Under the pieces are notes generated by a model, which saw only the letters and a program-made list of their open reading frames with translations, did no database searches and had not been told where the DNA came from. The translations under genes and the position numbers were made by a program. A DNA stretch of 36,305 nt, taken from assembly GCA_040384905.1 (NCBI GenBank), contig JAZKIJ010000029.1, positions 12,495-48,799 of the forward strand. The letters are read 5' to 3'. Of this stretch, positions 2,318-36,305 are shown one piece after another. The stretch is from Patescibacteria group bacterium (GTDB lineage: Bacteria > Patescibacteriota > Minisyncoccia > Phycocordibacterales > UBA918). Every line of letters begins with the position of its first letter. The stretch's first letter is position 1.

Positions 2318-2341
2318 TGTGGGCCAAAAATAGCACATTCC

Positions 2342-2413
2342 GTTGTTGCACTGCATAAAATAAAATTCACCGTATAAAAATACGGCTCATCTTATTTTAT
2401 TTGCGCGCCTAGG
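2342..2413 (+). repeat. bipartite hairpin element, copy A (long form with GTTGCAC / TGCGCGCC clamp)
   Basis: GTTGTTGCAC-AT-rich stem-TTCAC CGTAT aaaa ATACG GCTCA-return stem-TGCGCGCCTAGG. It starts 24 nt after the glyA stop. The core matches five other copies in this window. Confidence 0.6.
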
Positions 2414-2538
2414 ACTGTATCTATTTTAGACACATACTCGAGTTCTCGAGCATTATTGTGGTTGGAACTGCATCAATTTTAAAACGAATTTTTAGTTCAA
2501 ATAATAGATTTATAGTATTAGTCCCAATACGTATGTTT

Positions 2539-2747: not shown

Positions 2748-3842
2748 ATGAGTTATACTTACTGTATGACCTTTCGGGAAATGTTTCAGCAGGTAAAACA
2801 TCACTGGCTTACCGTGGCTTTTATTTTAGGATTCATCACTGATTATCTGTTACTCAATCGGATTGATGATACGTTTGATAATGCACTCCTGTTTTTTTAT
2901 GTGGTGTTAGCCTCGATTTCGATTGTATTATTGTACGGAAGTATTGCTCAAAAATTTGGCGAACGACCCTCGGCCTTTTTTCGAAAAGTAGCTCCGATGT
3001 TAATGCAGTATTCCTTCGGAGGATTATTCTCGGGGATGCTCATTTTTTATAGTCGCAGTGGAGCGCTCTGGGCATCGTGGCCGTTTTTACTTTTATTTAT
3101 TGCCGCTATTTATGGGAACGAGACGATGCGTAATCGTGGACAGCAATTGGTGTTTAACATCTTGTCTTATTTTGTGGGGTTGTTCTCGTACCTCGTGATG
3201 GTGGTGCCGGTGTTTCTCGGACGGATGGGCCCGGAAATATTTGTCGCTAGTGGATTGCTCGCACTCGTTATTGTGTATGCGCTAGTACAGCTTCTGACAA
3301 AAATTATTCCGAATTATATGTCGATGCAAACCAAGACCATTGTCTATATGGTGTTTGGATTATTCGTGGGGTTAAATACGTTGTACTTTACGAATGTGAT
3401 TCCACCGATCCCGCTCTCACTACAAGAAATACATATTGTGCACGAAGTCACACGATTAAACGATTCAACCTACGAGCTTACCTATGAGCCGGTAGAATGG
3501 TATCGCTATGATAAAAAAATGAGTATGGTATTTCATCCATCCGAATCAGGCACGGTGGCTTGTTTTACGAGAGTGTTTGCACCCGCAAAAATTGATACCG
3601 AGGTTTTCCATGTCTGGGAGTATCGTGACGCTGAAGGAAACTGGGTAGAGCATTATCGAAAATCATATGCCGTAACGGGGAAGGCAGTAAACGGCTACCG
3701 AGGTTGGACAGCACTTTCCTCAGCGCGCAATGGTGTATGGCGATGTAGTGTCGAGACTGCGCGCGGACAAGTATTGGGTCAAAAAGAATTTACCATCGAT
3801 ACGTCGATACCGCCGAGTACCTTAGAGAAAAAAGTTGATTAA
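2748..3842 (+). CDS. polytopic membrane protein with a C-terminal beta-rich soluble domain (possibly DUF2914-like)
   Basis: 364-aa ORF. The first ~215 aa contain multiple hydrophobic helices. The C-terminal ~130 aa are Trp/Tyr-rich and soluble (…GNWVEHYRKSY…GVWRCSVETARGQVLGQKEFTI). The start codon is uncertain, with several in-frame ATGs at 2748-2790. Confidence 0.6.
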   Translation: MSYTYCMTFREMFQQVKHHWLTVAFILGFITDYLLLNRIDDTFDNALLFFYVVLASISIVLLYGSIAQKFGERPSAFFRKVAPMLMQYSFGGLFSGMLIFYSRSGALWASWPFLLLFIAAIYGNETMRNRGQQLVFNILSYFVGLFSYLVMVVPVFLGRMGPEIFVASGLLALVIVYALVQLLTKIIPNYMSMQTKTIVYMVFGLFVGLNTLYFTNVIPPIPLSLQEIHIVHEVTRLNDSTYELTYEPVEWYRYDKKMSMVFHPSESGTVACFTRVFAPAKIDTEVFHVWEYRDAEGNWVEHYRKSYAVTGKAVNGYRGWTALSSARNGVWRCSVETARGQVLGQKEFTIDTSIPPSTLEKKVD

Positions 3843-9826: not shown

Positions 9827-11800
9827 GTGGATATTAGTATTATGTCACCGCTTAAAGATCAAGCTCAAATTGATGAAATTCGACGTCGTTTATACGAACG
9901 TGGAGCGCAACCGGGGGTCACACCCAGGCATAATTTATCAAAGGTAGCTGAAACTCCCCAAACGCGGTGGCCGGGACAAAAACCGTTACCGCAACCCGAA
10001 ATCTATCCTGCTGATCAACGCGGAGAAGTTCTTGATGAGCCAACTGTTGACGTGCATGAAGTTAAGGTACCCAAAAAGAGATTTAGGTTTACCTTTAGAA
10101 CGATAATGCTTATCTTGGCGCTTGGTACTTTTTTAGCGGCGATTTTATTTTCAAGTTTCTACATGCTGTTTGGAAACAATCAAATTTCCAACAAAAATAT
10201 TAGTATCAACATTAACGCCCCCTTAACTATTGGGGGAGGGGAAGTAATGGATATTCAGATATCGGTCACCAACCAAAATAAAGTCCCCATTGAATCTGCG
10301 GTGTTGATTGTGAATTATCCAGTCGGATCCAAATCAACGGATTTGCCCGCCAAAGATCTCTATGAAGAACGTATTACCCTCAACCGGATAGAGGCTGGTG
10401 AAGCAATTAATATTCCCCTCAAGGCCGTCATGTTTGGCGAAGAAAACCAAGAGCGACAAATTAAAGCCACCATTGAATATCGTTTGGTTGATTCAAACGG
10501 AACTTTCTACAAAGAGAGTGATCCGTTAACTTTTAAAATCAGTTCTTCGCCGGTAGTGATTCGCGTTGAATCAATTAAAAAAGTATCAGCGGGACAGGAT
10601 ATTGAAGTAAAATTGACCATTCAATCAAACGCGTCGACGCCATTAAAAGACGTACTTGTCACCGCCAATTATCCAACCAATTTTGATTTTAGCAGTGCAG
10701 AACCGACTCCTGTTTTTCGAGAGAGCGCTTGGTTGATTAAAGAATTACTCCCCGAAACCTCCACTACCATTGTGATTAAAGGGGGAATTCTTGGTAAGCA
10801 AACGGAAGAATTTCAAATTCAGTTCTCAGCCGGAACCGCCCAGCAAGATAATCAATTTATGATTGGATCGGTTCTAGCAAATGCCATCGCTGACTTTGTG
10901 ATTGAACAACCGTTTATTGATGTGGGGATTGGCGTTAATAATTTAACGACTGAAGTAGTGACACTACCAACCGGCCAAGACACGCAGGTTGAAGTATCAG
11001 TTCAAAACACATTGGATCAGACCCTCTACGATATGGCAGTTGAAGTGGCGGTTAAAGGAAATATTTTGGTACGGGAAAATGTGCAGGTAAACAAAGGGTT
11101 CTATGACTCGGTGAAAGATGTGATACGTTTTGACCCCTCAGGAGATAAAACGTTAGGGGCAGTCGCTCCAGGAGCCACAAAAAAATTCATCTTCACTCTA
11201 AGGCCCGGTGATCAAAAATCAACCCCATCATACACCCTGACTGCAAATGCGTACGCTCGGCGTGTAAACGAAACGAGTGCCACTGAACAATTAGTGGGTA
11301 CCGCCAAAACAGAAGTTAAATTTACTTCCTCGGTAGCGATAACCCGAACCATTGGCCGTAGCGTGCCTGGGTTTACTGATGTGGGACCAATTCCACCCGC
11401 ACCTGATATCAAAACTTCGTATACTGTTACATTGACGACCAGTGCCGGAGGGAATGATGTGACCGGTGGAGTGCTTACTACTTCTTTGCCCCAGTACGTC
11501 AGTTGGGAGAACCTCAGTAGTGGGGACGGCACGCTGGCTTTTAACCCGATATCAAAAGAACTAACCTGGACGGTAGGGGAAATTAAAGCCGGAGCCAAGA
11601 AAACCACCACTTTCCAAATCGCCCTCTTGCCAAGTCAGAACCAAATTGGTACAACTCCTGCAGTCCTCGGTACGCAACGATTTAGAGCGACTGACCGATT
11701 TACCAACCAGGTAATACGTGCCGAAGGGCCGCCCGCGAGTTCAGAATTAGGTATTGAATCTGGTTTTGAACAGAATAACGGTGAGGTGACTCGACCCTAA
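9827..11800 (+). CDS. single-pass membrane-anchored protein with a large repetitive beta-rich ectodomain, function unknown
   Basis: 657-aa ORF with a GTG at 9827 and a likelier ATG at 9842 (MSPLKDQ...). One TM helix (IMLILALGTFLAAILFSSFYMLF) is followed by ~550 aa rich in T/V/N/Q, with recurring 'xVxVxVxN' beta-sandwich-like segments. Confidence 0.6.
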   Translation: MDISIMSPLKDQAQIDEIRRRLYERGAQPGVTPRHNLSKVAETPQTRWPGQKPLPQPEIYPADQRGEVLDEPTVDVHEVKVPKKRFRFTFRTIMLILALGTFLAAILFSSFYMLFGNNQISNKNISININAPLTIGGGEVMDIQISVTNQNKVPIESAVLIVNYPVGSKSTDLPAKDLYEERITLNRIEAGEAINIPLKAVMFGEENQERQIKATIEYRLVDSNGTFYKESDPLTFKISSSPVVIRVESIKKVSAGQDIEVKLTIQSNASTPLKDVLVTANYPTNFDFSSAEPTPVFRESAWLIKELLPETSTTIVIKGGILGKQTEEFQIQFSAGTAQQDNQFMIGSVLANAIADFVIEQPFIDVGIGVNNLTTEVVTLPTGQDTQVEVSVQNTLDQTLYDMAVEVAVKGNILVRENVQVNKGFYDSVKDVIRFDPSGDKTLGAVAPGATKKFIFTLRPGDQKSTPSYTLTANAYARRVNETSATEQLVGTAKTEVKFTSSVAITRTIGRSVPGFTDVGPIPPAPDIKTSYTVTLTTSAGGNDVTGGVLTTSLPQYVSWENLSSGDGTLAFNPISKELTWTVGEIKAGAKKTTTFQIALLPSQNQIGTTPAVLGTQRFRATDRFTNQVIRAEGPPASSELGIESGFEQNNGEVTRP

Positions 11801-11829
11801 TACTTAACTTACAAACATTAAATTACGTT

Positions 11830-13218
11830 ATGACAAACCCCGACAGTACGACAAATAAAATGGAAAAAATTACCGCCCTGTGTAAGCGTCGGGGGTTTGT
11901 GTTTCAAGGTTCGGATATTTATGGGGGACTGCGGGGTACCTGGGATTTAGGTCCGCTTGGGGTTGCTCTTAATAACAACATCAAACGTGAGTGGTGGAAG
12001 ATGTTTGTAGATGGACGAGAAGATATGTATGGACTCGATGCGTCAATATTAATGAACGCCAAAGTCTGGGAGGCCAGTGGTCACACTGGCGCTGGTTTTG
12101 CTGATCCGATGCTTGAGGATACCGTGACAGGTGAACGCTTCCGAGCTGACCATTTTCTAAAAGATAACGGGTACGATGCGGAAGGGATGTCACTCGAAGC
12201 CATTGATGCGCTAATAACAGAAAAGGGAATTAAAAGTCCCAAAGGTAATCCACTGTCAAAAACCCGAACGTTTAACATGATGTTTGAAACTCGGATTGGC
12301 GCTACTGCCGGACCGGAAGGTTTGGTGTACTTGAGACCGGAAACAGCACAAGGAATTTTTGTGAACTTTAAAAATGTAGTTGACTCAATGGCGCCAAAGA
12401 TGCCATTTGGAATTGGACAGATAGGGAAGGCGTTTCGAAATGAAATTGCTCCCCGTGAATTTTTGTTCCGCGTGCGAGAGTTTGAGCAGATGGAAATTGA
12501 ATACTTCGTAAAAGAGGAAGAGTGGAAAGAACAATTTGAAAACTGGCGCTTGGCTATTTGGAATTGGTTTGACCATCTTGGACTTACGAGAGAAAACGTC
12601 CAGGAGCTTGAGGTAGCCGAAGGAGACCTCGCTCACTACAGTAAACGCACCATCGATTTTGAGTACAATTTTCCTGGTAAAGGCTTTGATGAGTTGGCTG
12701 GTTTTGCGTACCGAACCGACCATGACTTACAAGCGCACATGAACGCGAGCGGGGTTTCTATGGAATATATTGAATCAGACGGGACGCGCTTTGTGCCGCA
12801 CGTGCTTGAACCAAGTTTTGGGGTGGGTCGAGCAATAACCGCAGTATTATGTGAAGCGTATACGGAAGACGCAATGGGCGAGGATGGCCGAACGTTTCTT
12901 AAATTGCCAAAACACCTCGCGCCGTATGTAGCCTGTGTCTCACCGTTACTTCGTAACAAACCAGAGTTGGTAGAAAAAGCTCGGGGAGTGTTTTCTATCC
13001 TTAAAAAAGAGTTTGGAAATGTTACCTGGGATGACAATGGGAATGTCGGAAAACGTTACCGACGCCAAGATGAAATTGGTACCCCATACTGTATCGTGAT
13101 TGATTTTGACACCCTCGGAGAAAATCCAGAATTACTTGATACGGTCACCGTCCGTAATCGTGATACGGGGGAGCAGGAACGAATGGCTATTACGGAACTT
13201 GTAAACTACTTAAAATAA
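11830..13218 (+). CDS. glyQS: glycyl-tRNA synthetase (alpha2 homodimeric type)
   Basis: Motifs: ITALCKRRGFVFQGSDIYGGLRGTWDLGPLG, FRNEIAPREFLFRVREFEQMEIEYF and EPSFGVGR. The alternative start at 11860 (MEKIT...) is plausible. Confidence 0.9.
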   Translation: MTNPDSTTNKMEKITALCKRRGFVFQGSDIYGGLRGTWDLGPLGVALNNNIKREWWKMFVDGREDMYGLDASILMNAKVWEASGHTGAGFADPMLEDTVTGERFRADHFLKDNGYDAEGMSLEAIDALITEKGIKSPKGNPLSKTRTFNMMFETRIGATAGPEGLVYLRPETAQGIFVNFKNVVDSMAPKMPFGIGQIGKAFRNEIAPREFLFRVREFEQMEIEYFVKEEEWKEQFENWRLAIWNWFDHLGLTRENVQELEVAEGDLAHYSKRTIDFEYNFPGKGFDELAGFAYRTDHDLQAHMNASGVSMEYIESDGTRFVPHVLEPSFGVGRAITAVLCEAYTEDAMGEDGRTFLKLPKHLAPYVACVSPLLRNKPELVEKARGVFSILKKEFGNVTWDDNGNVGKRYRRQDEIGTPYCIVIDFDTLGENPELLDTVTVRNRDTGEQERMAITELVNYLK

Positions 13219-15810: not shown

Positions 15811-15842
15811 ATTTAACCTTCCATTCGAATGGAAGGTTAAAT
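15811..15842. repeat. 32-bp perfect palindrome, copy 1 of the AACCTTCCATTCGAATGGAAGGTT element
   Basis: ATTTAACCTTCCATTCGAATGGAAGGTTAAAT is its own reverse complement. It lies between the converging hydrolase and TrpR-like genes, and its last base is the first base of the TrpR-like stop codon. Confidence 0.9.
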
Positions 15843-16255
15843 TATTTATGCACTAATCTTTCTACGATTTTCCATCCTTCTGAACTGTTTCCGTAATGGG
15901 GCAATAGACCACCTAAATGTAAAATTGAGTCGATGGTATCCAAAATAGCAAAATAATTTTTTTTCGATTTTCCTAATCTTTGTAAAATATGTTCATATCT
16001 TCCTGAGATTACACCAAATTTTATTTTGTCTGCCGTAGTTGGACTAATTTTTAATAGTCGTGATATCGAATAAAGTGATTTTCCCTCAATAATTAAAATA
16101 ATTGTTGCAAGTCTTTTTGCTACCATTATCTGTTCCTCTTTTCCCAAAATTTCACGTAAGATGTTATCTGACTCAGGGTTAATAAGATTAGAAAATTGTA
16201 AGAACAAATCGTTTAGCTGAATTTCAGTAAGCAAATTTTTATTGAGTCGTACCAT
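15842..16255 (-). CDS. TrpR-related YerC/YecD-like DNA-binding protein
   Basis: 137-aa ORF. ...EEQIMVAKRLATIILIIEGKSLYSISRLLKISPTTADKIKFG... matches the Trp-repressor-like HTH layout. Confidence 0.6.
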   Translation of the reverse strand: MVRLNKNLLTEIQLNDLFLQFSNLINPESDNILREILGKEEQIMVAKRLATIILIIEGKSLYSISRLLKISPTTADKIKFGVISGRYEHILQRLGKSKKNYFAILDTIDSILHLGGLLPHYGNSSEGWKIVERLVHK

Positions 16256-16270
16256 TTAAAAAGAATATCA

Positions 16271-16294
16271 AACCTTCCATTCGAATGGAAGGTT
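16271..16294. promoter_or_regulatory. 24-bp perfect palindrome, copy 2; candidate operator in the divergent TrpR-like/tatD promoter region
   Basis: AACCTTCCATTCGAATGGAAGGTT is identical to the core of 15811-15842. It lies 15 nt from the TrpR-like ATG (16255) and 24 nt from the tatD ATG (16319). Confidence 0.6.
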
Positions 16295-16318
16295 ATACAT
16301 GTGGTATTATTCTCCAAT

Positions 16319-17628: not shown

Positions 17629-17934
17629 ATGACAGAAATCTGTGACTGGTCAACTGGCCACTTTCTGATTGCTCGAATTGATAGCTTGACTGCCGAAGCT
17701 GGTGAATCATGGTGGTGCGAATGCTTACGACCGTATGGTCATGCCGGCCCACATCTCGTCAAGCGAGTTGAGAGAATTGGAGGTCAGTATGTAATCTGGG
17801 AGCAAGACTGTTGTGAGCCAGGGACGTGTGAAGGTTGTGACGGAGAAGATCCCGAAGACTACTGTTTGGCCTATGCAGAAGTAGCGGAAGATGTGGCCTT
17901 AAGGCTTATTGCCGACGGTTCCCTAGAATCATAA
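17629..17934 (+). CDS. small acidic Cys-rich hypothetical protein
   Basis: 101-aa ORF with an AGGAG SD 6 nt upstream and a terminator immediately after. It has 8 Cys, including CEC, CCEPGTCEGC and YC. Confidence 0.6.
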   Translation: MTEICDWSTGHFLIARIDSLTAEAGESWWCECLRPYGHAGPHLVKRVERIGGQYVIWEQDCCEPGTCEGCDGEDPEDYCLAYAEVAEDVALRLIADGSLES

Positions 17935-17965
17935 AGGCCAGCGAACAAACGCTGGCCTTTCTTTT
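17934..17965 (+). terminator. intrinsic terminator
   Basis: GGCCAGCG-aacaaa-CGCTGGCC followed by TTTCTTTT. Confidence 0.8.
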
Positions 17966-17983
17966 ATATAAATATCCAAAAAA

Positions 17984-18127
17984 TAGTTTAGTAGCTAAGC
18001 ATCCTCAATAAAACAAAATTGTTTCAAAAAAGTTTTTGAGATACTAAAAATTCTTAAATTAGTTTAGTAGCTAGGCTCGCTCAATTAATCTAAATTATCT
18101 CAAAAATGAGATGACCGCGCGACGCGC
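17984..18127. repeat. degenerate tandem duplication (~76-bp unit)
   Basis: TAGTTTAGTAGCTAAGC (17984-18000) recurs as TAGTTTAGTAGCTAGGC (18060-18076). The following CTCAAT.AA.C.AAATT.T.TCAAAAA segments also align. Confidence 0.6.
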
Positions 18128-18181
18128 GAGGAAAATTTCCCGAGCCTTACTTTCTGTAAGGTGAGGGGAATTTTGCCGAAG
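18128..18181 (-). repeat. bipartite hairpin element, copy R1 (short form)
   Basis: The minus-strand sense reads CTTCGGCAAAATTCCC CTCAC CTTAC agaaa GTAAG GCTCG GGAAATTTTCCTC. It begins 36 nt after the stop of the D,D-carboxypeptidase gene. Confidence 0.65.
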
Positions 18182-18217
18182 CGCTACAAAGCGGCCGCTC
18201 ATTTTTGTGGTAATTTA

Positions 18218-19168
18218 TTAGTCAAAGATGCTGATTAAATACTCATCAATCTTCCGCTGCTCCCAATCATAAAAACTGGCATCAGCTTTATCTAAATCCT
18301 TTGCTAAATCTTCACCGACAAAACGCCAGTGCCACGGTTCAAATACATAGTAGGCATTACCTTTTGGGTAGGAGAGGGTAAAGCCATACTTGGAAGCATT
18401 TTCCAACATCCAGGTATAGGCTGGAGTGCCCTCGAACCCATCCAGTCCACCACCGAGCCCTTCGGTAGTAAAATCGAGCGTCGTACCGAGTTGGTGTTCG
18501 GAGTAGCCCTGGTCGGCGGAGAATGTGTTGGCGCCACTACCGTAGGTTTGGGTGTAGGCACCTTTGAGACTGGCTTGTTCGTTAAACGATCGGTAGGCTG
18601 ACACGACCCAAATTTTAATACCATCTTCTAACGCAGCTTCTATCATTTCATTAAGATACGGTTCGACTTTGCCGTGAATTGATTTGGAAACAGCTTCGTT
18701 ATATAAATATTTTTTCTCAATCGGGACAATTTTTTCCGGGATGTAGTGTTCGTTTAGGAAATAGACTTTGGAATATTTTTGCAGTAACTCTTTGTCGGTT
18801 TTAGAGAGTTTATCGAGCACACCAACGGTACCAGAAATTTTCTTAATTTGATCTTCAAATTCATCGTTTTTATTCTTTTCTTTTCGATAATCGTCCTCGA
18901 TGTCATCTAGTTCTTCCGCGGTGAGGGAGAGTCGGCTGGAGAGTTCGGCGATCGTACTGCTCGCTAATTCTCGTTCTTCGAGGCGACTTTGGGTGCTAGA
19001 AGCGTTTTCCAAGAGGAAATAGTTACGTTCCGCCAACAGCATGTCGATTTTCTTGGCTTGTGACCAGGTAGAGTACGATAAATACCCGGTACCAATCAGT
19101 AAGACCACAATTGCCCCCAAATAGAGGTATTTTGGATGAATTTTCCGACGAACAATAACTCGTGACAT
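18218..19168 (-). CDS. membrane-anchored D-alanyl-D-alanine carboxypeptidase (VanY / peptidase M15B family)
   Basis: SAYRSFNEQ, SEHQLGTTLDF and EPWHWRFVG are the M15B zinc-site motifs. The N-terminus has a TM helix and a coiled coil. The ORF track opens at TTG 19228, but ATG 19168 (MSRVIVRRK...) is the likelier start. Confidence 0.8.
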   Translation of the reverse strand: MSRVIVRRKIHPKYLYLGAIVVLLIGTGYLSYSTWSQAKKIDMLLAERNYFLLENASSTQSRLEERELASSTIAELSSRLSLTAEELDDIEDDYRKEKNKNDEFEDQIKKISGTVGVLDKLSKTDKELLQKYSKVYFLNEHYIPEKIVPIEKKYLYNEAVSKSIHGKVEPYLNEMIEAALEDGIKIWVVSAYRSFNEQASLKGAYTQTYGSGANTFSADQGYSEHQLGTTLDFTTEGLGGGLDGFEGTPAYTWMLENASKYGFTLSYPKGNAYYVFEPWHWRFVGEDLAKDLDKADASFYDWEQRKIDEYLISIFD

Positions 19169-19307
19169 AGTTGCTCTTAAGTATATCACGCATGCTTGAA
19201 AGAGGGCACTAATTGTGGTACTGTACAAACATTATTAGAGTGGGGATTAGGGCGGGGTAACACTGGTTTGCCAGTTCCCGGACTAATTCACATAATAAAA
19301 AATAAGA

Positions 19308-19835
19308 ATGTCAGAAACAACAATGCCAGCTATCGAGGCAGAAATTCGTACTGATGAGCAAGAAATTGCCTCATACGAACTCGCCTACCACATACTTCCA
19401 ACGGTAGCTGAAGGGGAAGTGATGGCAGTGACTCAGTCACTCAAAGACCTTATTACTAAAGCCGGTGGTCAAATTTTTGACACCGAAGACGCAGAACGCT
19501 TCGAACTAGCCTACGAGATTGATAAATATCTTGAAGGTAAGTACCGAAAGTTCAACAGTGCATACTTTGGATGGACACGTTTCAAACTTGCTCCATTAGC
19601 GCTTAATCAACTCACTGAACACGTGGATGAGCACAAGCAACTCCTACGATTCCTCCTCGTTCGATTAACGAAAGTAGAAGAAGCTAATCCGTTCCGTTTC
19701 CACGAAGCGTTAGTAGACACAAAAGTACGAAACATTGATCTTGATGCTGAAGTTGCTACCGACACCGAAGTGGTAGATACTGAAGGTATCGTCGATGAAG
19801 TGGTTGAAGGTGGAGACGATGTGAAGATTGCGTAG
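19308..19835 (+). CDS. rpsF: 30S ribosomal protein S6 with an acidic C-terminal extension
   Basis: YELAYHILPTVAEGE...ERFELAYEI is S6-like. The gene order rpsF-ssb-rpsR is classical. Confidence 0.8.
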   Translation: MSETTMPAIEAEIRTDEQEIASYELAYHILPTVAEGEVMAVTQSLKDLITKAGGQIFDTEDAERFELAYEIDKYLEGKYRKFNSAYFGWTRFKLAPLALNQLTEHVDEHKQLLRFLLVRLTKVEEANPFRFHEALVDTKVRNIDLDAEVATDTEVVDTEGIVDEVVEGGDDVKIA

Positions 19836-19867
19836 TACCTTATTTCGTAATTTGTAACTAAAACTAT

Positions 19868-20332
19868 ATGTACCTTAACAAAGCCATGATTTACGGAAAT
19901 CTCACCCGAGACCCGGAAATGAAATCCCTTCCGAGCGGCATGCAAGTATGCTCGTTCTCAGTTGCTACCAACCGTTCATACAATGACCGTGATGGTAAGC
20001 GCCAAGAAGCAGTTGAATACCACAATATTACTGCCTTTGGTAAACAAGCCGAAGTTATCTCTAAGTATTTAACAAAAGGTAGTGGTGTGTACGTTGAAGG
20101 ACGTTTACAAACCAACAGCTGGGAAAAAGACGGAGTCAAACAATATCGTACCGAAATTGTCGTCGATAAATTTGAATTTGGTCCGAAAGGTGGCGGCGCA
20201 GGAGGCAGTAGTACCAGTAACGCAGGAAACGCAGGCAGTAATGCCACGAGTACCGGGGGTAATAACAATAGTGCACCGGTGCTACCTGAGTATCCAACTG
20301 AAGACATCAATCCCGAAGACATCCCATTTTAG
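19868..20332 (+). CDS. ssb: single-stranded DNA-binding protein
   Basis: OB fold MYLNKAMIYGNLTRDPEMK...WEKDGVKQYRTEIVV, a Gly/Asn-rich linker and an acidic DIPF tail. Confidence 0.9.
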   Translation: MYLNKAMIYGNLTRDPEMKSLPSGMQVCSFSVATNRSYNDRDGKRQEAVEYHNITAFGKQAEVISKYLTKGSGVYVEGRLQTNSWEKDGVKQYRTEIVVDKFEFGPKGGGAGGSSTSNAGNAGSNATSTGGNNNSAPVLPEYPTEDINPEDIPF

Positions 20333-20354
20333 AGGCTGGATGTACCCAATCTGC

Positions 20355-20424
20355 GTTGTTGCACATCAATTGTGTCAGTCACGGTAGAAACCTACCGCTT
20401 CTTCCAAAATTGATGTGCGCCTAG
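20355..20424 (+). repeat. bipartite hairpin element, copy B (long form)
   Basis: GTTGTTGCACATCAATT...GTCAC GGTAG aaac CTACC GCTTC...AATTGATGTGCGCCTAG. It starts 22 nt after the ssb stop, inside the ssb-rpsR gap. Confidence 0.6.
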
Positions 20425-20514
20425 CATCTCGGGCACCCCAGACTCTAAAATAAATCGAGACGTCTGGAATCTGCAAAATTAAAATTTTGAAAACTTATTA
20501 GTTAACATACCAAC

Positions 20515-20718
20515 ATGGAACAACATAATCTTCACAAAAAGGCGGCTTTGGAGCATATTGATTACAAAGACATCACTAGTCTCGCAAACAATATCAACCC
20601 ACACGCACGTATGAACAGTCGACGTCGAACTGGCTTCTCAGCCAAGGCACAACGTGACTTTTCTCGAGCGATTAAGCGGGCGCGGTTTATGGCCCTAATG
20701 CCATACATCGCCCGCTAA
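20515..20718 (+). CDS. rpsR: 30S ribosomal protein S18
   Basis: 67-aa ORF with YKDI...RRRTGFSAKAQRDFSRAIKRARFMALMPY. Confidence 0.9.
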   Translation: MEQHNLHKKAALEHIDYKDITSLANNINPHARMNSRRRTGFSAKAQRDFSRAIKRARFMALMPYIAR

Positions 20719-20751
20719 AGCTTCCATAGCAAGCCATCTGCTGTGTTGGGA

Positions 20752-20805
20752 CTGCGGTAAAATTTTACTCACCGTACAAAAGGTACGGCTCGCAAAATTT
20801 TCCTT
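20752..20805 (+). repeat. bipartite hairpin element, copy R2 (short form)
   Basis: CTGCGGTAAAATTTTA CTCAC CGTAC aaaag GTACG GCTCG CAAAATTTTCCTT. It begins 33 nt after the rpsR stop. Confidence 0.65.
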
Positions 20806-20865
20806 GCCCGCCTTGCATATGACTCACTCTGAAAGCTTTAGTAGAAGTTAATTCAGTGGAAAAAG

Positions 20866-20893
20866 AAAAAACACCCGGTGGGGTGTTTTTTTT
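20866..20893 (+). terminator. intrinsic terminator (end of the rpsF-ssb-rpsR unit)
   Basis: AAAAAACACCC-ggtg-GGGTGTTTTTTTT. Confidence 0.8.
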
Positions 20894-20941
20894 GGAATTG
20901 AGGTATATACTTATTTTTGGAACAGGAATTGGAGGGAAGCC

Positions 20942-21142
20942 ATGTCTGTTGGATATCTTGCAATACCGATGATTGTAGCACTCCTTTGTGCTCTGCTCTT
21001 CGGCCAGTCTATTCTTCATGGGTTTGCCATCTATGTAGGGGTAGGTATAGTTCTCACGATGGGGACAGCCACCTTGCTCAGCTACAATATGCCGCGGAGT
21101 CAAAAAAACCACCAAGCTGACAAAGCCCACAAAGCCTTTTAG
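20942..21142 (+). CDS. small two-helix membrane protein
   Basis: 66-aa ORF with a GGAGGG SD 5 nt upstream. It has two hydrophobic helices and a basic tail, and is bracketed by terminators. Confidence 0.6.
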   Translation: MSVGYLAIPMIVALLCALLFGQSILHGFAIYVGVGIVLTMGTATLLSYNMPRSQKNHQADKAHKAF

Positions 21143-21149
21143 GCAAACA

Positions 21150-21180
21150 AAAAAGCCGCAGCTCACGCCGCGGCTTTTTC
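21150..21180 (+). terminator. intrinsic terminator
   Basis: AAAAAGCCGC-agctcacgcc-GCGGCTTTTTC. Confidence 0.75.
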
Positions 21181-21339
21181 TTTGTAAAGTAAAATCAAGC
21201 TTTCTACTACTTTTTTTTTAATTCAATTTAAAACGTATAAATATTTAGTTAAAATGCTTAGATACTAGTGAAAAAGTGCCTAAGTGCCTGCTATTTTGAA
21301 AAAATAGCGAGAACCTGAACAGCTTCTATAGGAAGGGGC

Positions 21340-21393
21340 GAGGAAAATTTTGCGAGCCGTACTTTTTGTACGGTGAGTCAAATTTTGCCGAAG
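21340..21393 (-). repeat. bipartite hairpin element, copy R3 (short form)
   Basis: The minus-strand sense reads CTTCGGCAAAATTTGA CTCAC CGTAC aaaaa GTACG GCTCG CAAAATTTTCCTC. It begins 35 nt after the efp stop. Confidence 0.65.
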
Positions 21394-21428
21394 TACAACA
21401 ACGTAGATAAGTGTTTTTAGTAAATATT

Positions 21429-22004
21429 TTAAGCTTTCTCGATTCGTTCTGAGTAGTCGCCTGATTCGGTGTTGATGGAAATCACGTCACCTTCATTGAT
21501 AAACATTGGTACCATGACGGTGGCGCCAGTTTCTACGGTTACTTGTTTAAGGGCACTACTTGAGGTGTTACCTTTAACCGCAGGCATGGCTTCGGTTACC
21601 TTAAGTTCTACTTTAATAGGGAACTTGATACCAATAATCTCTTCTTCAAATACCAACGCTTGTACGTCACTGCGTTCCTTAAGGAATTTACCCGGGTCTC
21701 CAATAAAGTCTTCGGTGAGGGCAAAGCGTTCCGCTGGCTTGCCAGCGTTATGGAACCAGTATTCGCTTCCTTTGCGATAAATGAATGTTACGTTTTTGTT
21801 TTCAAGATCAGCCTCGTCCGCAGTTTCGCTTACGTGGAAGGTCTGTTCGTACTGACGACCAGACTTCAAACCTTTAAGTTTAGTAATGTTTACCGGCTTA
21901 CGTTGTTGCTTACGAAACACGTGAGTAGCGAGCACTAAACAAGGCTCATCGTTAAAGATGATGACTTTCTTGAGGGTTATTTCGTTGTATGAGAGGACAG
22001 CCAT
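21429..22004 (-). CDS. efp: elongation factor P (non-canonical loop-tip sequence)
   Basis: The 191-aa ORF aligns without gaps over residues 18-56 with E. coli EF-P, and the C-terminus DVISINTESGDYSERI matches. The canonical KPGKG loop is replaced by RKQQRKP. Confidence 0.85.
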   Translation of the reverse strand: MAVLSYNEITLKKVIIFNDEPCLVLATHVFRKQQRKPVNITKLKGLKSGRQYEQTFHVSETADEADLENKNVTFIYRKGSEYWFHNAGKPAERFALTEDFIGDPGKFLKERSDVQALVFEEEIIGIKFPIKVELKVTEAMPAVKGNTSSSALKQVTVETGATVMVPMFINEGDVISINTESGDYSERIEKA

Positions 22005-22098
22005 GAAATGAAGAAATGAGCGTAGCGATTATTCTGAATTTCGTTCCGAGTTTACCCCTTTCCTAGGGTAAACTCCTGGAACCTGTAATCGTTGCTAC
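22005..22098 (-). promoter_or_regulatory. conserved structured 5' leader element, copy L1 (upstream of efp)
   Basis: A 94-nt block abuts the efp ATG and is about 90% identical to 26977-27070. Its 10-bp hairpin is GAGTTTACCC/GGGTAAACTC, extended by GTTCC/GGAAC and an outer GCGATTA/TAATCG..GC stem. Confidence 0.55.
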
Positions 22099-22207
22099 CC
22101 AGTTAATTAAAATGAATAATAGCGTCACATTTATACCAAAATTACCCATTAAAAGCAACGCGTGTATAGCAACCAAAGCGTTAGTTTGGTGGTATTATTA
22201 AAGAATT

Positions 22208-26976: not shown

Positions 26977-27070
26977 GAAATGAATAAATGAGCGCCAGCG
27001 ATTATTATGAATTTCGTTCCGAGTTTGCCCCTTTCCTAGGGCAAACTCCTGGAACTAGTAATCGTTGCTA
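26977..27070 (-). promoter_or_regulatory. conserved structured 5' leader element, copy L2 (upstream of ftsK)
   Basis: This block abuts the ftsK ATG. The hairpin GAGTTTGCCC/GGGCAAACTC differs from L1 by a compensatory A:T to G:C exchange. Confidence 0.55.
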
Positions 27071-27319
27071 GCGACTCATTTTGTACTAATGCTAATAAAA
27101 TATTCTACCTATATATGCGCGCATTATATCACTAAATATGACTATTATCTGTGCATATAATGAGGCGCGTAAGCACTCAAAGACACTTGTCATCTTCACT
27201 ATTTCATATCCAATTTTCTAACTCCCACCCGTGTCCTTTTCTTGCTTTTTGTCCAAAATGTCCTTATAATACAAGTGTCTTTAATCTATTAGACAGAGCA
27301 AAATCTTATAAGACATATC

Positions 27320-35414: not shown

Positions 35415-35903
35415 GTGGCCATTACAAAAGCAAAGAAGGTAGATATCCTCAGTAAGTTGACTGAAGTAAAAGATACTGCAGACTCAATTGTGTTCGTTCA
35501 CTATAAAGGTCTTTCAGTAGCTGCTACTACAGCAATGCGCAAGGAACTACGAGAAAAAGGCGTTGGCATGTTCGTAGCCAAAAAGACTCTTATGGGTCGC
35601 GCATTTGATGGAGCATTCACCGGTACCATGCCAACACTCGACGGCGAAATCGCTGTTGCATATAGTGTTGACGCAATGGCGCCAGCTCAGAATATGAAGG
35701 AGTTTTCAACCAAGTTCAAAGACAAGATTACTATTGTTGGCGGTGTCTTCCAAGGTGCCTACAAGAATAAAGAAGAAATGATTGAAATTGCTTCGATCCC
35801 ATCACTTGATGTACTCCGAGGAATGTTTGCTCAACTCATCAACTCACCACGTCAGCGTTTTGCTGTGGTACTAGATGCAGTCTCAGGAACCAAGGGTGCC
35901 TAG
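35415..35903 (+). CDS. rplJ: 50S ribosomal protein L10
   Basis: 162-aa ORF with a GTG start. (M)AITKAKKVDILSKL...VFVHYKGLSVAATTAMRKELRE is typical L10, and rplL follows. Confidence 0.9.
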   Translation: MAITKAKKVDILSKLTEVKDTADSIVFVHYKGLSVAATTAMRKELREKGVGMFVAKKTLMGRAFDGAFTGTMPTLDGEIAVAYSVDAMAPAQNMKEFSTKFKDKITIVGGVFQGAYKNKEEMIEIASIPSLDVLRGMFAQLINSPRQRFAVVLDAVSGTKGA

Positions 35904-35930
35904 AGCATGTCCAAAAATCCCTCATACTGT

Positions 35931-35998
35931 GTTGCACTTCAATCGGTAACACTCAACGTACAATCAAGTACGTCTCGTATTACCTCAATTGTGCGCCT
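35931..35998 (+). repeat. bipartite hairpin element, copy C (long form)
   Basis: GTTGCACTTCAAT...CTCAA CGTAC aatcaa GTACG TCTCG...CTCAATTGTGCGCCT. It starts 27 nt after the rplJ stop, in the rplJ-rplL gap. Confidence 0.6.
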
Positions 35999-36055
35999 TG
36001 TCTGAGAAATTTTTGACCACACTCTTACTTAACTTACATACTAATAATTAAAAAC

Positions 36056-36305
36056 ATGACAAACGATCAAATTATCGAAGCCGTTGAAAAAATGACTGTT
36101 CTTGAACTCAACACTCTCGTAAAGACAATTGAAGAGAAGTGGGGAGTATCTGCAACAGCAGTAGCAGTAGCTGGTCCAGCTGCAGCAGCTGGTGGAGCTG
36201 ATGAACAATCAGAATTCACTGTTGAACTTACAGAAGCTGGTGCGCAAAAGATTGCTGTTATCAAGGTAATCAAGGAAGTACTTGGTCTTGGACTCAAGGA
36301 AGCCA
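36056..36305 (+). CDS. rplL: 50S ribosomal protein L7/L12, N-terminal part (3' end outside the window)
   Basis: Hand translation: [83 protein letters not shown]... Confidence 0.9.

Follow-up and report, generated by a model that had tools for sequence, protein, structure and literature searches.

The three near-identical hairpins singled out in the preliminary description of this DNA are, with very little doubt, the apexes of an undescribed multi-copy family of 115- to 190-nt rods, found throughout Patescibacteria/CPR at the stop codon of mostly highly expressed housekeeping genes and in the same orientation. A covariance model (CM) run over 224 kb of DNA from Patescibacteria/CPR, among them Saccharibacteria, Kaiserbacteria and Campbellbacteria, detected 39 copies, with E-values as low as 1e-29 and a density of about one copy per 6 kb. 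In the window, the whole 36,305-nt stretch analyzed here, the model gives six copies instead of the three first reported. At gathering thresholds, Rfam 15 returned only a tRNA-Pro for the whole window; with the cutoff relaxed to E<=10, neither 17900-22200 nor the best copy (L036, 7650-7950) gave anything beyond noise with no relation to the element. Neither a matching Rfam family nor a published description of the element was found.

The hairpins themselves were recovered where they had been reported. Their core, CTCAC-N15-GCTCG in the sense of the gene, lies at 18141-18165 (-), 20768-20792 (+) and 21353-21377 (-); these three matches in the window compare with 0.01 expected, and none of 100 shuffles reached three. 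The hairpin arms also turn up as repeats I1, I2 and D3. Calculated from the sequence and the ORF list, the distances to the stops of the VanY-like gene, rpsR and efp are indeed 36, 33 and 35 nt, respectively, and the identities of the three genes were confirmed with Pfam. What did not hold is a 54-nt hairpin placed about 35 nt past the stop as the unit, considering that the hairpin (48-54 nt) is the apex only of a 115- to 190-nt rod that includes the stop codon. Since the rod extends at its base as far as the stop codon, the start of the element lies only 0-12 nt past the stop.

The CM scan did not place the copies at random with respect to genes. Of the 34 informative copies, 32 have a rod that begins at a gene's stop codon, often pairs with it and has one orientation (an apparent exception, L029, was resolved in favor of the rule). 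The idea of a dedicated, non-terminator element at gene 3' ends, fixed in its orientation to the gene, is supported, and the rule extends to many genomes. Measured from the stop, the CM match begins at -8 to +12 nt, and predicted stems extend to the stop codon in 27 of 29 copies. Stop codons at the copies are TAA (15), TAG (13) and TGA (1), and the stop-to-element distances are spread over all three frames. The products of the partner genes include S18, SSB, EF-P, L10, S7, S12, L21, L28, L31, EF-Tu, NusG, SecY, SecA, SHMT, VanY, NDK and FtsA.

From base to apex, the rod is composed of an A/U-rich basal helix P1, P2 with tandem G.A, an A-rich internal loop, P3, P4 (usually AAAAUUUU), an invariant C-G/G.A/A.G/G-U stack, a 6-7-bp P5 and a variable loop; a branched variant exists beside this plain rod. 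P1 is semi-conserved (UCARAA/UUYUGG), and its helix runs on outward into locus-specific sequence including the stop codon. Tested statistically, as the preliminary description had suggested, covariation gave a strong signal: 95.3% of cells were paired, a share that fell to 72.7% in shuffles and to about 40% when the partners were slid. None of 500 shuffles equaled the real alignment. Double changes were present in 28 of 29 pairs, and RNAalifold run on an unfitted MAFFT alignment showed compensatory changes in 31 of 36. The compensatory change first noticed in the inner stem is real and holds across the family (CCGUAC/GUACGG, CCUUAC/GUAAGG, CAUACU/AGUAUG, CCUUAU/AUAAGG and others).

We then describe the six copies of the window, with the strand of the rod in brackets. 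Copy A (2320-2434, -) lies 3' of a serine hydroxymethyltransferase gene (1049-2317, stop TAG; Pfam SHMT), with a CM match at 2324-2430 (92.4 bits) and a fold of -46.4 versus -32.8 kcal/mol on the other strand; its core is the variant U-A/G.A/A.G/G-U, the usual closing C-G being replaced. Copy R1 (18084-18222, +) is a full rod with its apex at 18130-18177; its 3' arm pairs across the tandem stop codons (18215-18220) of the VanY-like gene (Pfam VanY), and it folds at -63.7 kcal/mol (z -7.8) versus -48.8 on the other strand, with a CM score of 102 bits. Copy B (20326-20451, -), a divergent rod between ssb and rpsR (39 bits; -66.1 versus -50.3 kcal/mol), pairs at its base with the ssb stop codon (20330-20332) and the last four bases of the ORF. 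Copy R2 (20712-20844, -), a full rod with its apex at 20754-20803 and the rpsR stop codon (20716-20718) in its base, scores 107.6 bits and folds at -61.4 kcal/mol (z -5.4) versus -39.5 (z -1.7). Copy R3 (21239-21429, +; apex 21342-21389) is the long branched form, ending at the efp stop codon (21429-21431) and carrying, in the 5' strand between P2 and P3, an insertion of about 65 nt (21269-21335) with three hairpins; its apical part scores 75 bits, its fold is -51.7 versus -38.1 kcal/mol, and L008 and L018a share this branched architecture. Copy C (35898-36028, -) lies between rplJ (Pfam Ribosomal_L10) and rplL, with the rplJ stop codon (35901-35903) in its base and 27 nt left to the rplL ATG (36056); it scores 54.8 bits and folds at -55.9 (z -7.3) versus -35.9 kcal/mol. 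Outside the core the six copies differ widely, with scores of 39-108 bits. Two canonical bidirectional terminators lie nearby, outside the element: the intrinsic one already noted at 20866-20893, 3' of R2 in the rpsR sense, which the terminator scan recovered, and another at 21149-21180, distal to R3 (from the sequence and terminator-type alignments).

Comparison of the two strands revealed a strong asymmetry. In each of the 36 copies compared, the antisense strand of the gene had the lower minimum free energy, with a mean of -56.0 versus -41.9 kcal/mol. On that strand, variable pairs are G.U far more often than A.C (57 versus 9, p about 1e-9), two tandem G.A motifs are present, and unpaired bases are 45% A and 27% G. 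The fold is optimized on the antisense strand and bears there every mark of a functional structured RNA. Moreover, the C/G ratio of the sense strand is 1.45 in rods versus 0.98 in rod-free 3' flanks and third codon positions, a skew specific to the element. The internal loop that had been called invariant is a 3x3 loop on the gene-sense strand only, while the opposite strand forms a closed C-G / G.A / A.G / G-U stack at this place, and the three apexes fold at -35.2, -28.1 and -21.4 kcal/mol on this opposite strand versus -23.6, -17.8 and -14.1 on the gene-sense strand. The tandem sheared G.A pairs suggested earlier for the opposite strand proved to be the key point. As for the proposed 3'-UTR element, the tie to the gene 3' end stands, but the selection signature sits on the strand antisense to the gene. 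Because this signature (G.U far exceeding A.C, tandem G.A motifs, A/G-rich loops) is antisense, a simple folded 3'-UTR RNA motif is insufficient without the added assumption that selection keeps the mRNA copy soft and poor in G.

We also looked at differences between strains. R3 is missing in the 95%-identical strain JAZKFU, and in close strains copy B has another apex and the block 20702-21429 has been exchanged, with recombination breakpoints falling at rods. Between the orthologous copies L018a and L021a, an internal module was inserted or deleted at the same site. Such fast copy turnover between 95%-identical strains would be expected of a mobile or recombining repeat no less than of a regulatory element. 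The R1 orthologues of the window and of L011 differ by two compensatory double substitutions, and in the different allele of copy B carried by a close strain, the last codon and stop (TTT TAG versus TTC TAA) co-vary with the distal arm. That orthologous copies compensate in place and that the distal arm adapts to the stop and last codons of its own gene point to selection at each locus and not to the decay of dead copies; as copies diverge within one genome as much as between phyla, no recent bursts have occurred.

Judging from context only, namely flanking terminators and operon positions, the sense strand appears to be the transcribed strand. In at least 10 loci (R2, L010, L020, L032, L033, L003, L034 and others), the stop is followed by the rod and, after another 10-45 nt, by a canonical bidirectional terminator, and separate canonical terminators lie 3' of 14 of 35 copies. 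Rods are also intercistronic in conserved operons, between ssb and rpsR and between rplJ and rplL in the window, and elsewhere between rpsL and rpsG, tuf and rpsJ (26 nt left) and rpmE and the next gene (11 nt left), leaving overall 11-40 nt to the next start codon. Terminator-shielded rods score as high as unshielded ones.

We tentatively favor a co-transcribed 3'-UTR or intercistronic element that is deliberately soft in mRNA, in agreement with the position, the orientation, the context and the fold described above. The element would be transcribed with the upstream gene, forming either its 3' UTR or the stretch up to the next cistron, and the mRNA would form a soft, G-poor rod, about 90% Watson-Crick, with the remainder as C.A or pyrimidine-pyrimidine mismatches, which would correspond to G.U or G.A on the complementary strand. 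The stop codon lies within the A/U-rich base; therefore, each terminating ribosome must melt this base, and a hard helix there would presumably hinder termination. The refolded interrupted duplex, of about 50 bp with conserved internal loops, might then serve as a private 3' boundary of the upstream cistron, blocking 3' exonucleases, offering a processing site or binding a putative conserved protein; this is also how REP/BIME, ERIC and chloroplast 3' inverted repeats work. Against this stand the RNA-type marks of the fold on the other strand, the fact that some sense copies fold hardly above shuffled sequence (R2, z -1.7), and the fast turnover of copies between strains. A stabilizer would normally be strongest in the mRNA. 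In addition, the assumption of an mRNA copy that is soft on purpose and G-poor is ad hoc.

A strand-specific DNA repeat (REP/REPIN-, ERIC- or attC-like) is possible but rather unlikely. Here the selected form would be the folded single-stranded template strand, recognized by a conserved spreading or maintenance enzyme, e.g., an HUH/Y1 transposase or a recombinase, and the fixed orientation would be a host filter, the only orientation tolerated being that with the weak strand in mRNA at the stop codon. G.T and tandem G.A are the most stable mismatches in DNA hairpins too; thus, this explanation accounts for the strand asymmetry without antisense transcription. It also agrees with the high copy number, the presence/absence and allele replacement between close strains (R3, the copy B apex, block 20702-21429), the breakpoints at rods, conservation independent of flanking terminators, and the module gained or lost between L018a and L021a; ERIC variants are known with similar internal insertions. 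On the contrary, in-place compensation in orthologues, the fit of the distal arm to each gene's stop and last codons, and a within-genome divergence equal to that between phyla speak against it, as do A-rich loops and branched expansions, which are more typical of RNA. Orientation also tracks the gene and not replication, with three flips within 3.3 kb, and no transposase was found beside any of the copies. A palindrome-flanked 137-aa ORF at 15842-16255 gave no Pfam match.

Less likely still is an antisense-acting RNA, in which transcription entering from the gene's 3' side, or from an own promoter, would produce the well-folding RNA. One possible role is that of a polar barrier or tag, by which antisense transcripts would be terminated, arrested or marked ahead of a head-on collision with a heavily transcribed gene; another is that of a cis-antisense regulator of this gene. 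All RNA-type signatures are indeed on the antisense strand, P1 has a terminator-like A-rich 5' arm and U-rich 3' arm in about half of the copies, and at the convergent pair of L029 the r-protein gene rpmB gets the weak strand and the incoming ComEC-like transcript the strong one; a conserved AT-rich block upstream of R1 could hold a promoter. Yet at 10 loci or more an efficient bidirectional terminator lies immediately upstream in the antisense direction, and those copies are equally conserved; at L010, L032 and L033 this position leaves no room for a promoter. Operon-internal rods (rplJ-rplL, ssb-rpsR, tuf-rpsJ) have no plausible antisense source, about a quarter of the copies have a reversed P1 A/U polarity and cannot be intrinsic terminators, convergent gene pairs are not enriched, and a consistent promoter motif was not seen. 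Finally, ordinary intrinsic terminators or chance hairpins, alike by coincidence, would suit the position downstream of genes and the A/U-rich P1, whose 3' arm carries U4-5 in many copies, but this highly improbable reading is already refuted by family-wide conservation (loops and non-Watson-Crick pairs invariant across phyla, E-values to 1e-29) and by separate canonical terminators that follow rods which the terminator scan does not call and which also occur inside operons.

We compared the element with known systems. A Rho-independent terminator closes a transcription unit and has a GC-rich stem with a U-run directly after it, 5 U or more within 8 nt. In the rods, NAAAAUUUU comes after the apex and pairs back, the 3' arm of P1 holds no more than U4-5, with polarity reversed in about a quarter of copies, and the positions include those between ssb/rpsR, rplJ/rplL, rpsL/rpsG and tuf/rpsJ. 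In a kink-turn, a 3-nt bulge on one strand comes before the tandem G.A/A.G; the tandem G.A of the rods does not fit, as there is no bulge and the pair flanking the G.A step covaries in Watson-Crick manner (C-G 34, U-A 4, G-C 1). The segment GAGCCGUAC...GUACGGU resembles the lower stem of group II intron domain V (D5), whose 34-nt consensus hairpin has its AGC triad paired and bears a 2-nt bulge; in the rods, the A and G of AGC face G and A, the bulge and upper helix are absent, and the stem covaries away elsewhere. A recoding signal (SECIS, PYLIS or read-through hairpin) calls for one particular stop codon, a hairpin after it that holds firm in the mRNA, and a reading frame that stays open past the stop; mixed stops, all three frames and the mRNA strand being the weak one do not match it.

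Chloroplast mRNA 3' inverted repeats and bacterial 3' stabilizer hairpins are likewise post-stop stem-loops, inefficient as terminators, that define and protect 3' ends, but unlike the rods they are short, gene-specific, without conserved loops and strongest in the mRNA strand. Integron attC sites (e.g., the Vibrio cholerae repeats) are 57-141-nt imperfect palindromes directly 3' of ORFs in fixed orientation, whose functional fold is bottom (template) strand ssDNA, with structure kept above sequence and a variable, sometimes branched terminal structure. Their basal R and L boxes (RYYYAAC/GTTRRRY) are conserved and their apex variable, the reverse of the rods, where the foot is variable and A/U-rich and a conserved AAC is unpaired in the internal loop in place of R''/R' boxes. 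In addition, attC sites belong to promoterless accessory cassettes in one-directional arrays next to the integrase gene intI, whereas the rods accompany core genes on both strands (ribosomal proteins, EF-Tu, EF-P, SecY, etc.) in conserved operon order.

REP/BIME/REPIN sequences are abundant extragenic palindromes at gene 3' ends and between cistrons. They are co-transcribed and are known to influence mRNA stability and, when near the stop, translation termination; they also show strand-specific recognition of folded ssDNA by a Y1/HUH enzyme and long vertical inheritance. The earlier label "REP-like" was a fair analogy in copy number and turnover, but not in the palindrome: REPs are 20-40-nt GC-rich hairpins with a terminal GTAG or CGTC tag, near-identical within a genome, while the rods have 115-190 nt, an AT-rich base, wide within-genome divergence and a conserved apex, with GUAG only inside the P2 3' strand of roughly half of the copies. 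A RAYT gene was not seen in the 36 kb of this genome covered. ERIC/IRU elements (enterobacterial repetitive intergenic consensus) are of unrelated sequence and from a different phylum, and the rods differ from them in a palindrome base locked to the stop codon, a nearly invariant gene-relative orientation, conservation of the apex and not the ends, and the strong strand asymmetry. A TA target-site duplication, as in ERIC and Correia elements, is indistinguishable from the palindrome since TA is self-complementary, and ERIC is not known to have a transposase. The likeness to ERIC/IRU is that of imperfect palindromes, about 120-130 nt long, which lie in transcribed DNA between genes or at their 3' side, in tens to hundreds of copies, unusually conserved across distant genera and with length variants from insertions at fixed internal sites; the mRNA effects of ERIC depend on orientation. 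The rods indeed show the features of the ERIC/MITE type, being imperfect palindromes of about 100-150 bp (lengths from the folds) in intergenic DNA that is transcribed, to judge from context, with internal insertion variants.

The three hairpins R1, R2 and R3 of the preliminary description are real, larger and far more widespread than first reported, and statistically solid. Their cores, CTCAC-N15-GCTCG, lie where they had been placed, at 18141-18165(-), 20768-20792(+) and 21353-21377(-); 0.01 chance matches to this pattern are expected in the window and none of 100 shuffles reached three, and the repeat finder paired the same stretches at 78-92% identity. We also confirmed the distances of 36, 33 and 35 nt from the stop codons of the VanY-like gene, rpsR and efp, the identities of these three genes (Pfam) and the canonical terminator at 20866-20893. 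However, the hairpin is not the complete unit, as with 50-60 nt extra on each side R1 and R2 fold as single long rods. The elements had also been read on their weaker strand, although the accompanying remark on G.A pairs of the opposite strand was right.

On this opposite, well-folding strand, the rod is built of helices P1 to P5 from base to apex. P1 is A/U-rich, often UCARAA/UUYUGG, and P2 is variable with frequent tandem G.A pairs (for example GAUAC/GUAGAU), followed by an asymmetric, A-rich loop (RAGGC versus AACRMAG), a P3 of 4 bp (GNGC/GCNC) and a second loop (AA versus GCAG). P4 is usually GGAAAAUUUUG/NAAAAUUUUACC and covaries, reading AAAAAGCCG/CGGCUUUUU in locus L020. Beyond it stands an invariant stack of C-G, G.A, A.G and G-U, in which the G-U pair was found in 39 of 39 copies and the closing C-G changes to U-A or G-C in five. 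P5, of 6-7 bp, ends in a variable loop of 4-6 nt.

A covariance model (CM) of the family found six copies in the window where three had been reported. With extents taken from the folds, these are copy A at 2320-2434 (-) after the serine hydroxymethyltransferase gene (92 bits), R1 at 18084-18222 (+) after the VanY-like gene (102 bits), copy B at 20326-20451 (-) after ssb, between ssb and rpsR (39 bits), R2 at 20712-20844 (-) after rpsR (108 bits), R3 at 21239-21429 (+) after efp (75 bits) and copy C at 35898-36028 (-) after rplJ, between rplJ and rplL (55 bits). A, B and C are probably the copies to which the preliminary description gave the same letters. The folds of the R1 and R2 rods reach -63.7 kcal/mol (z -7.8) and -61.4 kcal/mol (z -5.4), respectively. 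R3, though degenerate at first sight, is a long branched form: three small hairpins, together about 65 nt, are inserted downstream of its true 5' arm (GCUUAGAUACUAG, 21256-21268). This architecture and its conserved junction (...ACAGCUUCUGUAAGAAGGGGC) recur outside the window in L008 (Kaiserbacteria) and in copy L018a. L018a (L018, 8730-8975) and L021a (L021, 1424-1531) are orthologous sites of two close strains with an identical 3' rod half, and they differ by a three-hairpin module of about 110 nt inserted in L018, where the P3 strand no longer matches; such a pattern suggests a gene conversion with a long-form copy as donor and a breakpoint in the conserved GCAAGG. As for the surroundings of R1, the block upstream is tandemly duplicated (17969-18030 and 18045-18106, TAGTTTAGTAGCTARGC...CTCAAT...), including the 5' arm of P1. 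The first duplicate ends in a small palindrome, TCAAAAAAGTTTTTGA, resembling an "empty" P1, and sequencing runs X2 and X3 contain strains without 48 nt upstream of R1 (joint 17974 to 18023).

We looked for the family in other genomes. Scanning one genome per species with the inner stem of the pattern left free returned 12 loci, mostly in Patescibacteria MAGs (Saccharibacteria, Kaiserbacteria, Campbellbacteria and unclassified), two being labelled Elusimicrobia, while a metagenome scan in which neither the flanks nor the 5' half of the outer helix were constrained gave 25 further loci. The CM scan that had been proposed, using a model built from 25 copies and run on these loci plus the window (224 kb), revealed 39 copies at E<1e-6. 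Loci L014, L017, L022, L025, L031 and L037-L040, from human-gut and viral contigs, were left out as chance look-alikes; their hairpin, CCACCGAGCCAUACGAAAGUAUGGUGAGGAGAAUUUCC, is recurrent in phage-like contigs and fits the search pattern with unrelated flanks, apparently in coding sequence. A viral origin was rejected, the viral matches being only an unrelated phage coding hairpin, CCACCGAGCCAUACGAAAGUAUGGUGAG, which was left out. The covariation first noticed among three copies was borne out, with 28 of 29 pairs changed on both sides and no equal in 500 shuffles; it extends from the inner stem to the outer helix and to three more helices in the flanks. RNAalifold on a plain MAFFT alignment of 30 copies gave 36 pairs, and 31 of these show compensatory double changes. 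In the 39-copy alignment, which is fitted to the CM but with which the unfitted MAFFT alignment agrees, 95.3% of cells are paired, versus 72.7% after shuffling and 36-47% with slid partners.

The fixed position and orientation relative to a stop codon also hold in the family, the well-folding strand being antisense to the partner gene in 32 of the 34 informative copies. Among the 29 copies with a readable neighbouring ORF, the start of the element falls between -8 and +12 nt relative to the partner stop codon, and predicted stems, some of whose longest extensions may be spurious, reach or include this codon in 27; the gene on the other side lies 11 to 876 nt away. The true orientation exceptions are the Elusimicrobia-labelled copy L002 and a weaker second element of L010 at 3006-3135 (-), between rpsL and rpsG (34.5 bits). 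The latter is the only exception in CPR DNA; it lies in reverse orientation directly after the regular rod of rpsL, with 67 nt left to rpsG, and its mRNA-sense strand is the well-folding one (-39.5 versus -22.1 kcal/mol). L029 was dismissed as an exception, being an artefact of ORF picking at a rod that abuts the rpmB stop codon. Partner genes are strikingly often core and highly expressed: they include S18, SSB, EF-P, L10, SHMT, VanY, NDK, NusG, L21, SecY (twice), EF-Tu, S7, S12, L31, L28 and FtsA, and inspection added SecA, GyrA, MreB and a PilB-like ATPase. Their stop codon is TAG in 13 of 29 cases versus 50 of 188 background ORFs (about 27%), a mild excess. In the window, 3 of the 5 TAG-terminated long ORFs bear an element. 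Read-through or coding of the element was rejected on the stop-to-element distances, which occur in all frames.

The antisense strand folded better in all 36 copies tested (mean -56.0 versus -41.9 kcal/mol). On this strand, G.U exceeds A.C by 57 to 9 in the variable pairs (p about 1e-9), and the unpaired positions are 45% A and 27% G. A general compositional or mutational skew is excluded as the cause, because C/G is 1.45 on the sense strand of the rods versus 0.98 in rod-free 3' flanks and third codon positions. A replication-strand explanation fails as well, since over 3.3 kb the orientation changes three times, each time with the gene. The context, on the other hand, points clearly to the gene-sense strand as the one transcribed. 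At least 10 loci show the order stop codon, rod, 10-45 nt and textbook bidirectional terminator, and rods occur within universally co-transcribed gene pairs, in the window ssb-rpsR and rplJ-rplL (with 27 nt left to the rplL ATG at 36056) and in other loci rpsL-rpsG, tuf-rpsJ (26 nt) and rpmE with its next gene (11 nt). A search for RNA runs found none for the organism of the window or for L034, and the contigs of a wastewater metatranscriptome sharing words with L018 did not cover the rods. Given this sense-strand context and the antisense-strand fold, the strand that resembles a functional RNA is the one least likely to be made, and this is the central unexplained fact.

The explanation that we tentatively place first, giving it somewhat less than an even chance, is that the element is transcribed with its partner gene, in the 3' UTR or between cistrons. 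Its copy in the mRNA would be held soft, since the rod base contains the stop codon, and the element might serve as a cistron boundary, a stabiliser or a protein platform, as for REP, ERIC and chloroplast 3' inverted repeats. Position, stop-codon pairing, operon context, gene class and selection at each locus all fit a co-transcribed element, which needs the extra assumption that the mRNA avoids G and prefers C.A over G.U.

The comparison of strains bears on a second explanation, possible but rather unlikely in our opinion, namely a strand-specific DNA repeat whose folded template strand would be read by a putative enzyme, with the host filtering its orientation. Rod loci are hot spots of allelic exchange. 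JAZKFU, the MAG of a close strain with about 95% identity to the window, keeps R1 and R2, and of the three changes in R2 one replaces G-C by G.U in the well-folding strand. Copy B is replaced there by an allele with another apex and another P1; the last codon and stop read TTT TAG in one allele versus TTC TAA in the other, and the distal arm fits each version. R3 and its adjoining small ORF are swapped for a block with a plain terminator. In contigs of the source metagenomes we saw these replacements again, and a third variant with 20702-21429 exchanged. In a strain of run X1, 424 other bases replace 20702-21429, from 16 nt before the rpsR stop to the efp stop, a region in which R2 and R3 enclose the small ORF with a terminator on either side, and the efp allele beyond is only about 82% identical. 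The DNA runs revealed block replacements only, with no clean excision boundaries. Such turnover and module exchange fit a DNA repeat, as do the asymmetry and the independence from terminators. However, two of the differences between R1 and its counterpart in L011 (about 89% identical) are compensatory double substitutions, and such changes between orthologues, together with the arm-matched alleles, indicate that the copies are under selection for pairing in place; this compensatory change, like the RNA-like loops, agrees poorly with a DNA repeat.

We consider doubtful, too, that the active form is the well-folding template strand, either folded as ssDNA or copied into RNA in some unrecognised way, and read by a conserved CPR-wide factor. 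This putative factor would recognise the two tandem G.A motifs and the A-rich loops. If true, CPR genomes would carry, at the stop codons of their most highly expressed genes, a strand-specific "punctuation mark" of a kind not described elsewhere, be its role in recombination, gene exchange, transcription polarity or self-propagation. An antisense-acting RNA would fit the fold signature best of all, but it is contradicted by the terminator and operon contexts and is, to us, improbable. In L010, L032 and L033 the terminator leaves no space for an antisense promoter, terminator-shielded copies have CM scores as high as the others, and in the 90-nt upstream stretches of 34 copies we saw no consistent -35/-10 recurring at a constant distance. 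Also excluded are plain terminators and chance hairpins, and a terminator logic, in which an extra terminator would accompany every copy lacking a U-rich 3' arm, does not hold among the copies.

The window contains other repeats. A second, unrelated family (22024-22108 and 26997-27081, 88% identical over 85 nt) forms hairpins roughly 100 nt long, 20 nt ahead of the efp and ftsK starts (both minus strand) and followed by a conserved motif, GAAAUGAANAAAUGAGCG. Both strands fold equally (z -3.6 to -8.3), Rfam gave no match, and metagenome contig depth rises 3-5 fold over the repeat, so more copies exist elsewhere. Identical perfect 25-nt palindromes, AACCTTCCATTCGAATGGAAGGTTA, at 15815-15839 and 16271-16295 surround a 137-aa ORF at 15842-16255(-) without Pfam match; no alignment was obtained between segment 15766-16331 and the 95%-identical JAZKFU, so that the segment resembles an inserted cassette or small mobile unit. 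A motif of about 30 nt (ACTTAACTTACAWAC...) is common to 11794-11825, 20492-20523 and 36019-36050, directly upstream of the starts of the gene at 11830, rpsR and rplL, which have no visible Shine-Dalgarno; it may represent an organism-typical promoter or signal for translation initiation.

CPR/Patescibacteria genomes are among the smallest and most streamlined of bacteria. Extrapolated from about one copy per 6 kb, the element would occupy roughly 2% of CPR DNA, beside genes of the translation and secretion machinery, and across classes the family shows a conservation nearly as tight as that of a riboswitch. Resolving the strand paradox would reveal a new mRNA 3'-end or operon-punctuation logic in a major, barely cultivated branch of life, or else a new strand-specific DNA element with its enzyme, or a new class of antisense-acting RNA. 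In practical terms, the CM can also be used as a marker when CPR genomes and gene ends are annotated.

The element appears to be previously undescribed. Rfam 15 gave no match for the window or the best copy in gathering and permissive E-value searches, full-text literature searches including literal sequence strings found no description of a CPR repeat, and the text of a 2026 preprint on intergenic features does not include CPR. We know of no precedent for four of its features: the stop-codon anchor, the near-invariant gene orientation, the conserved apex with variable base, and a fold optimised on the non-mRNA strand. Measured against the features that define REP, attC, kink-turns, group II intron domain V, SECIS or recoding signals and intrinsic terminators, the element fails in each case. 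We file it among the interspersed extragenic palindromic elements, where its closest families by behaviour are ERIC and REP/BIME, while by geometry it comes closest to integron attC, with a template-strand fold just 3' of an ORF.
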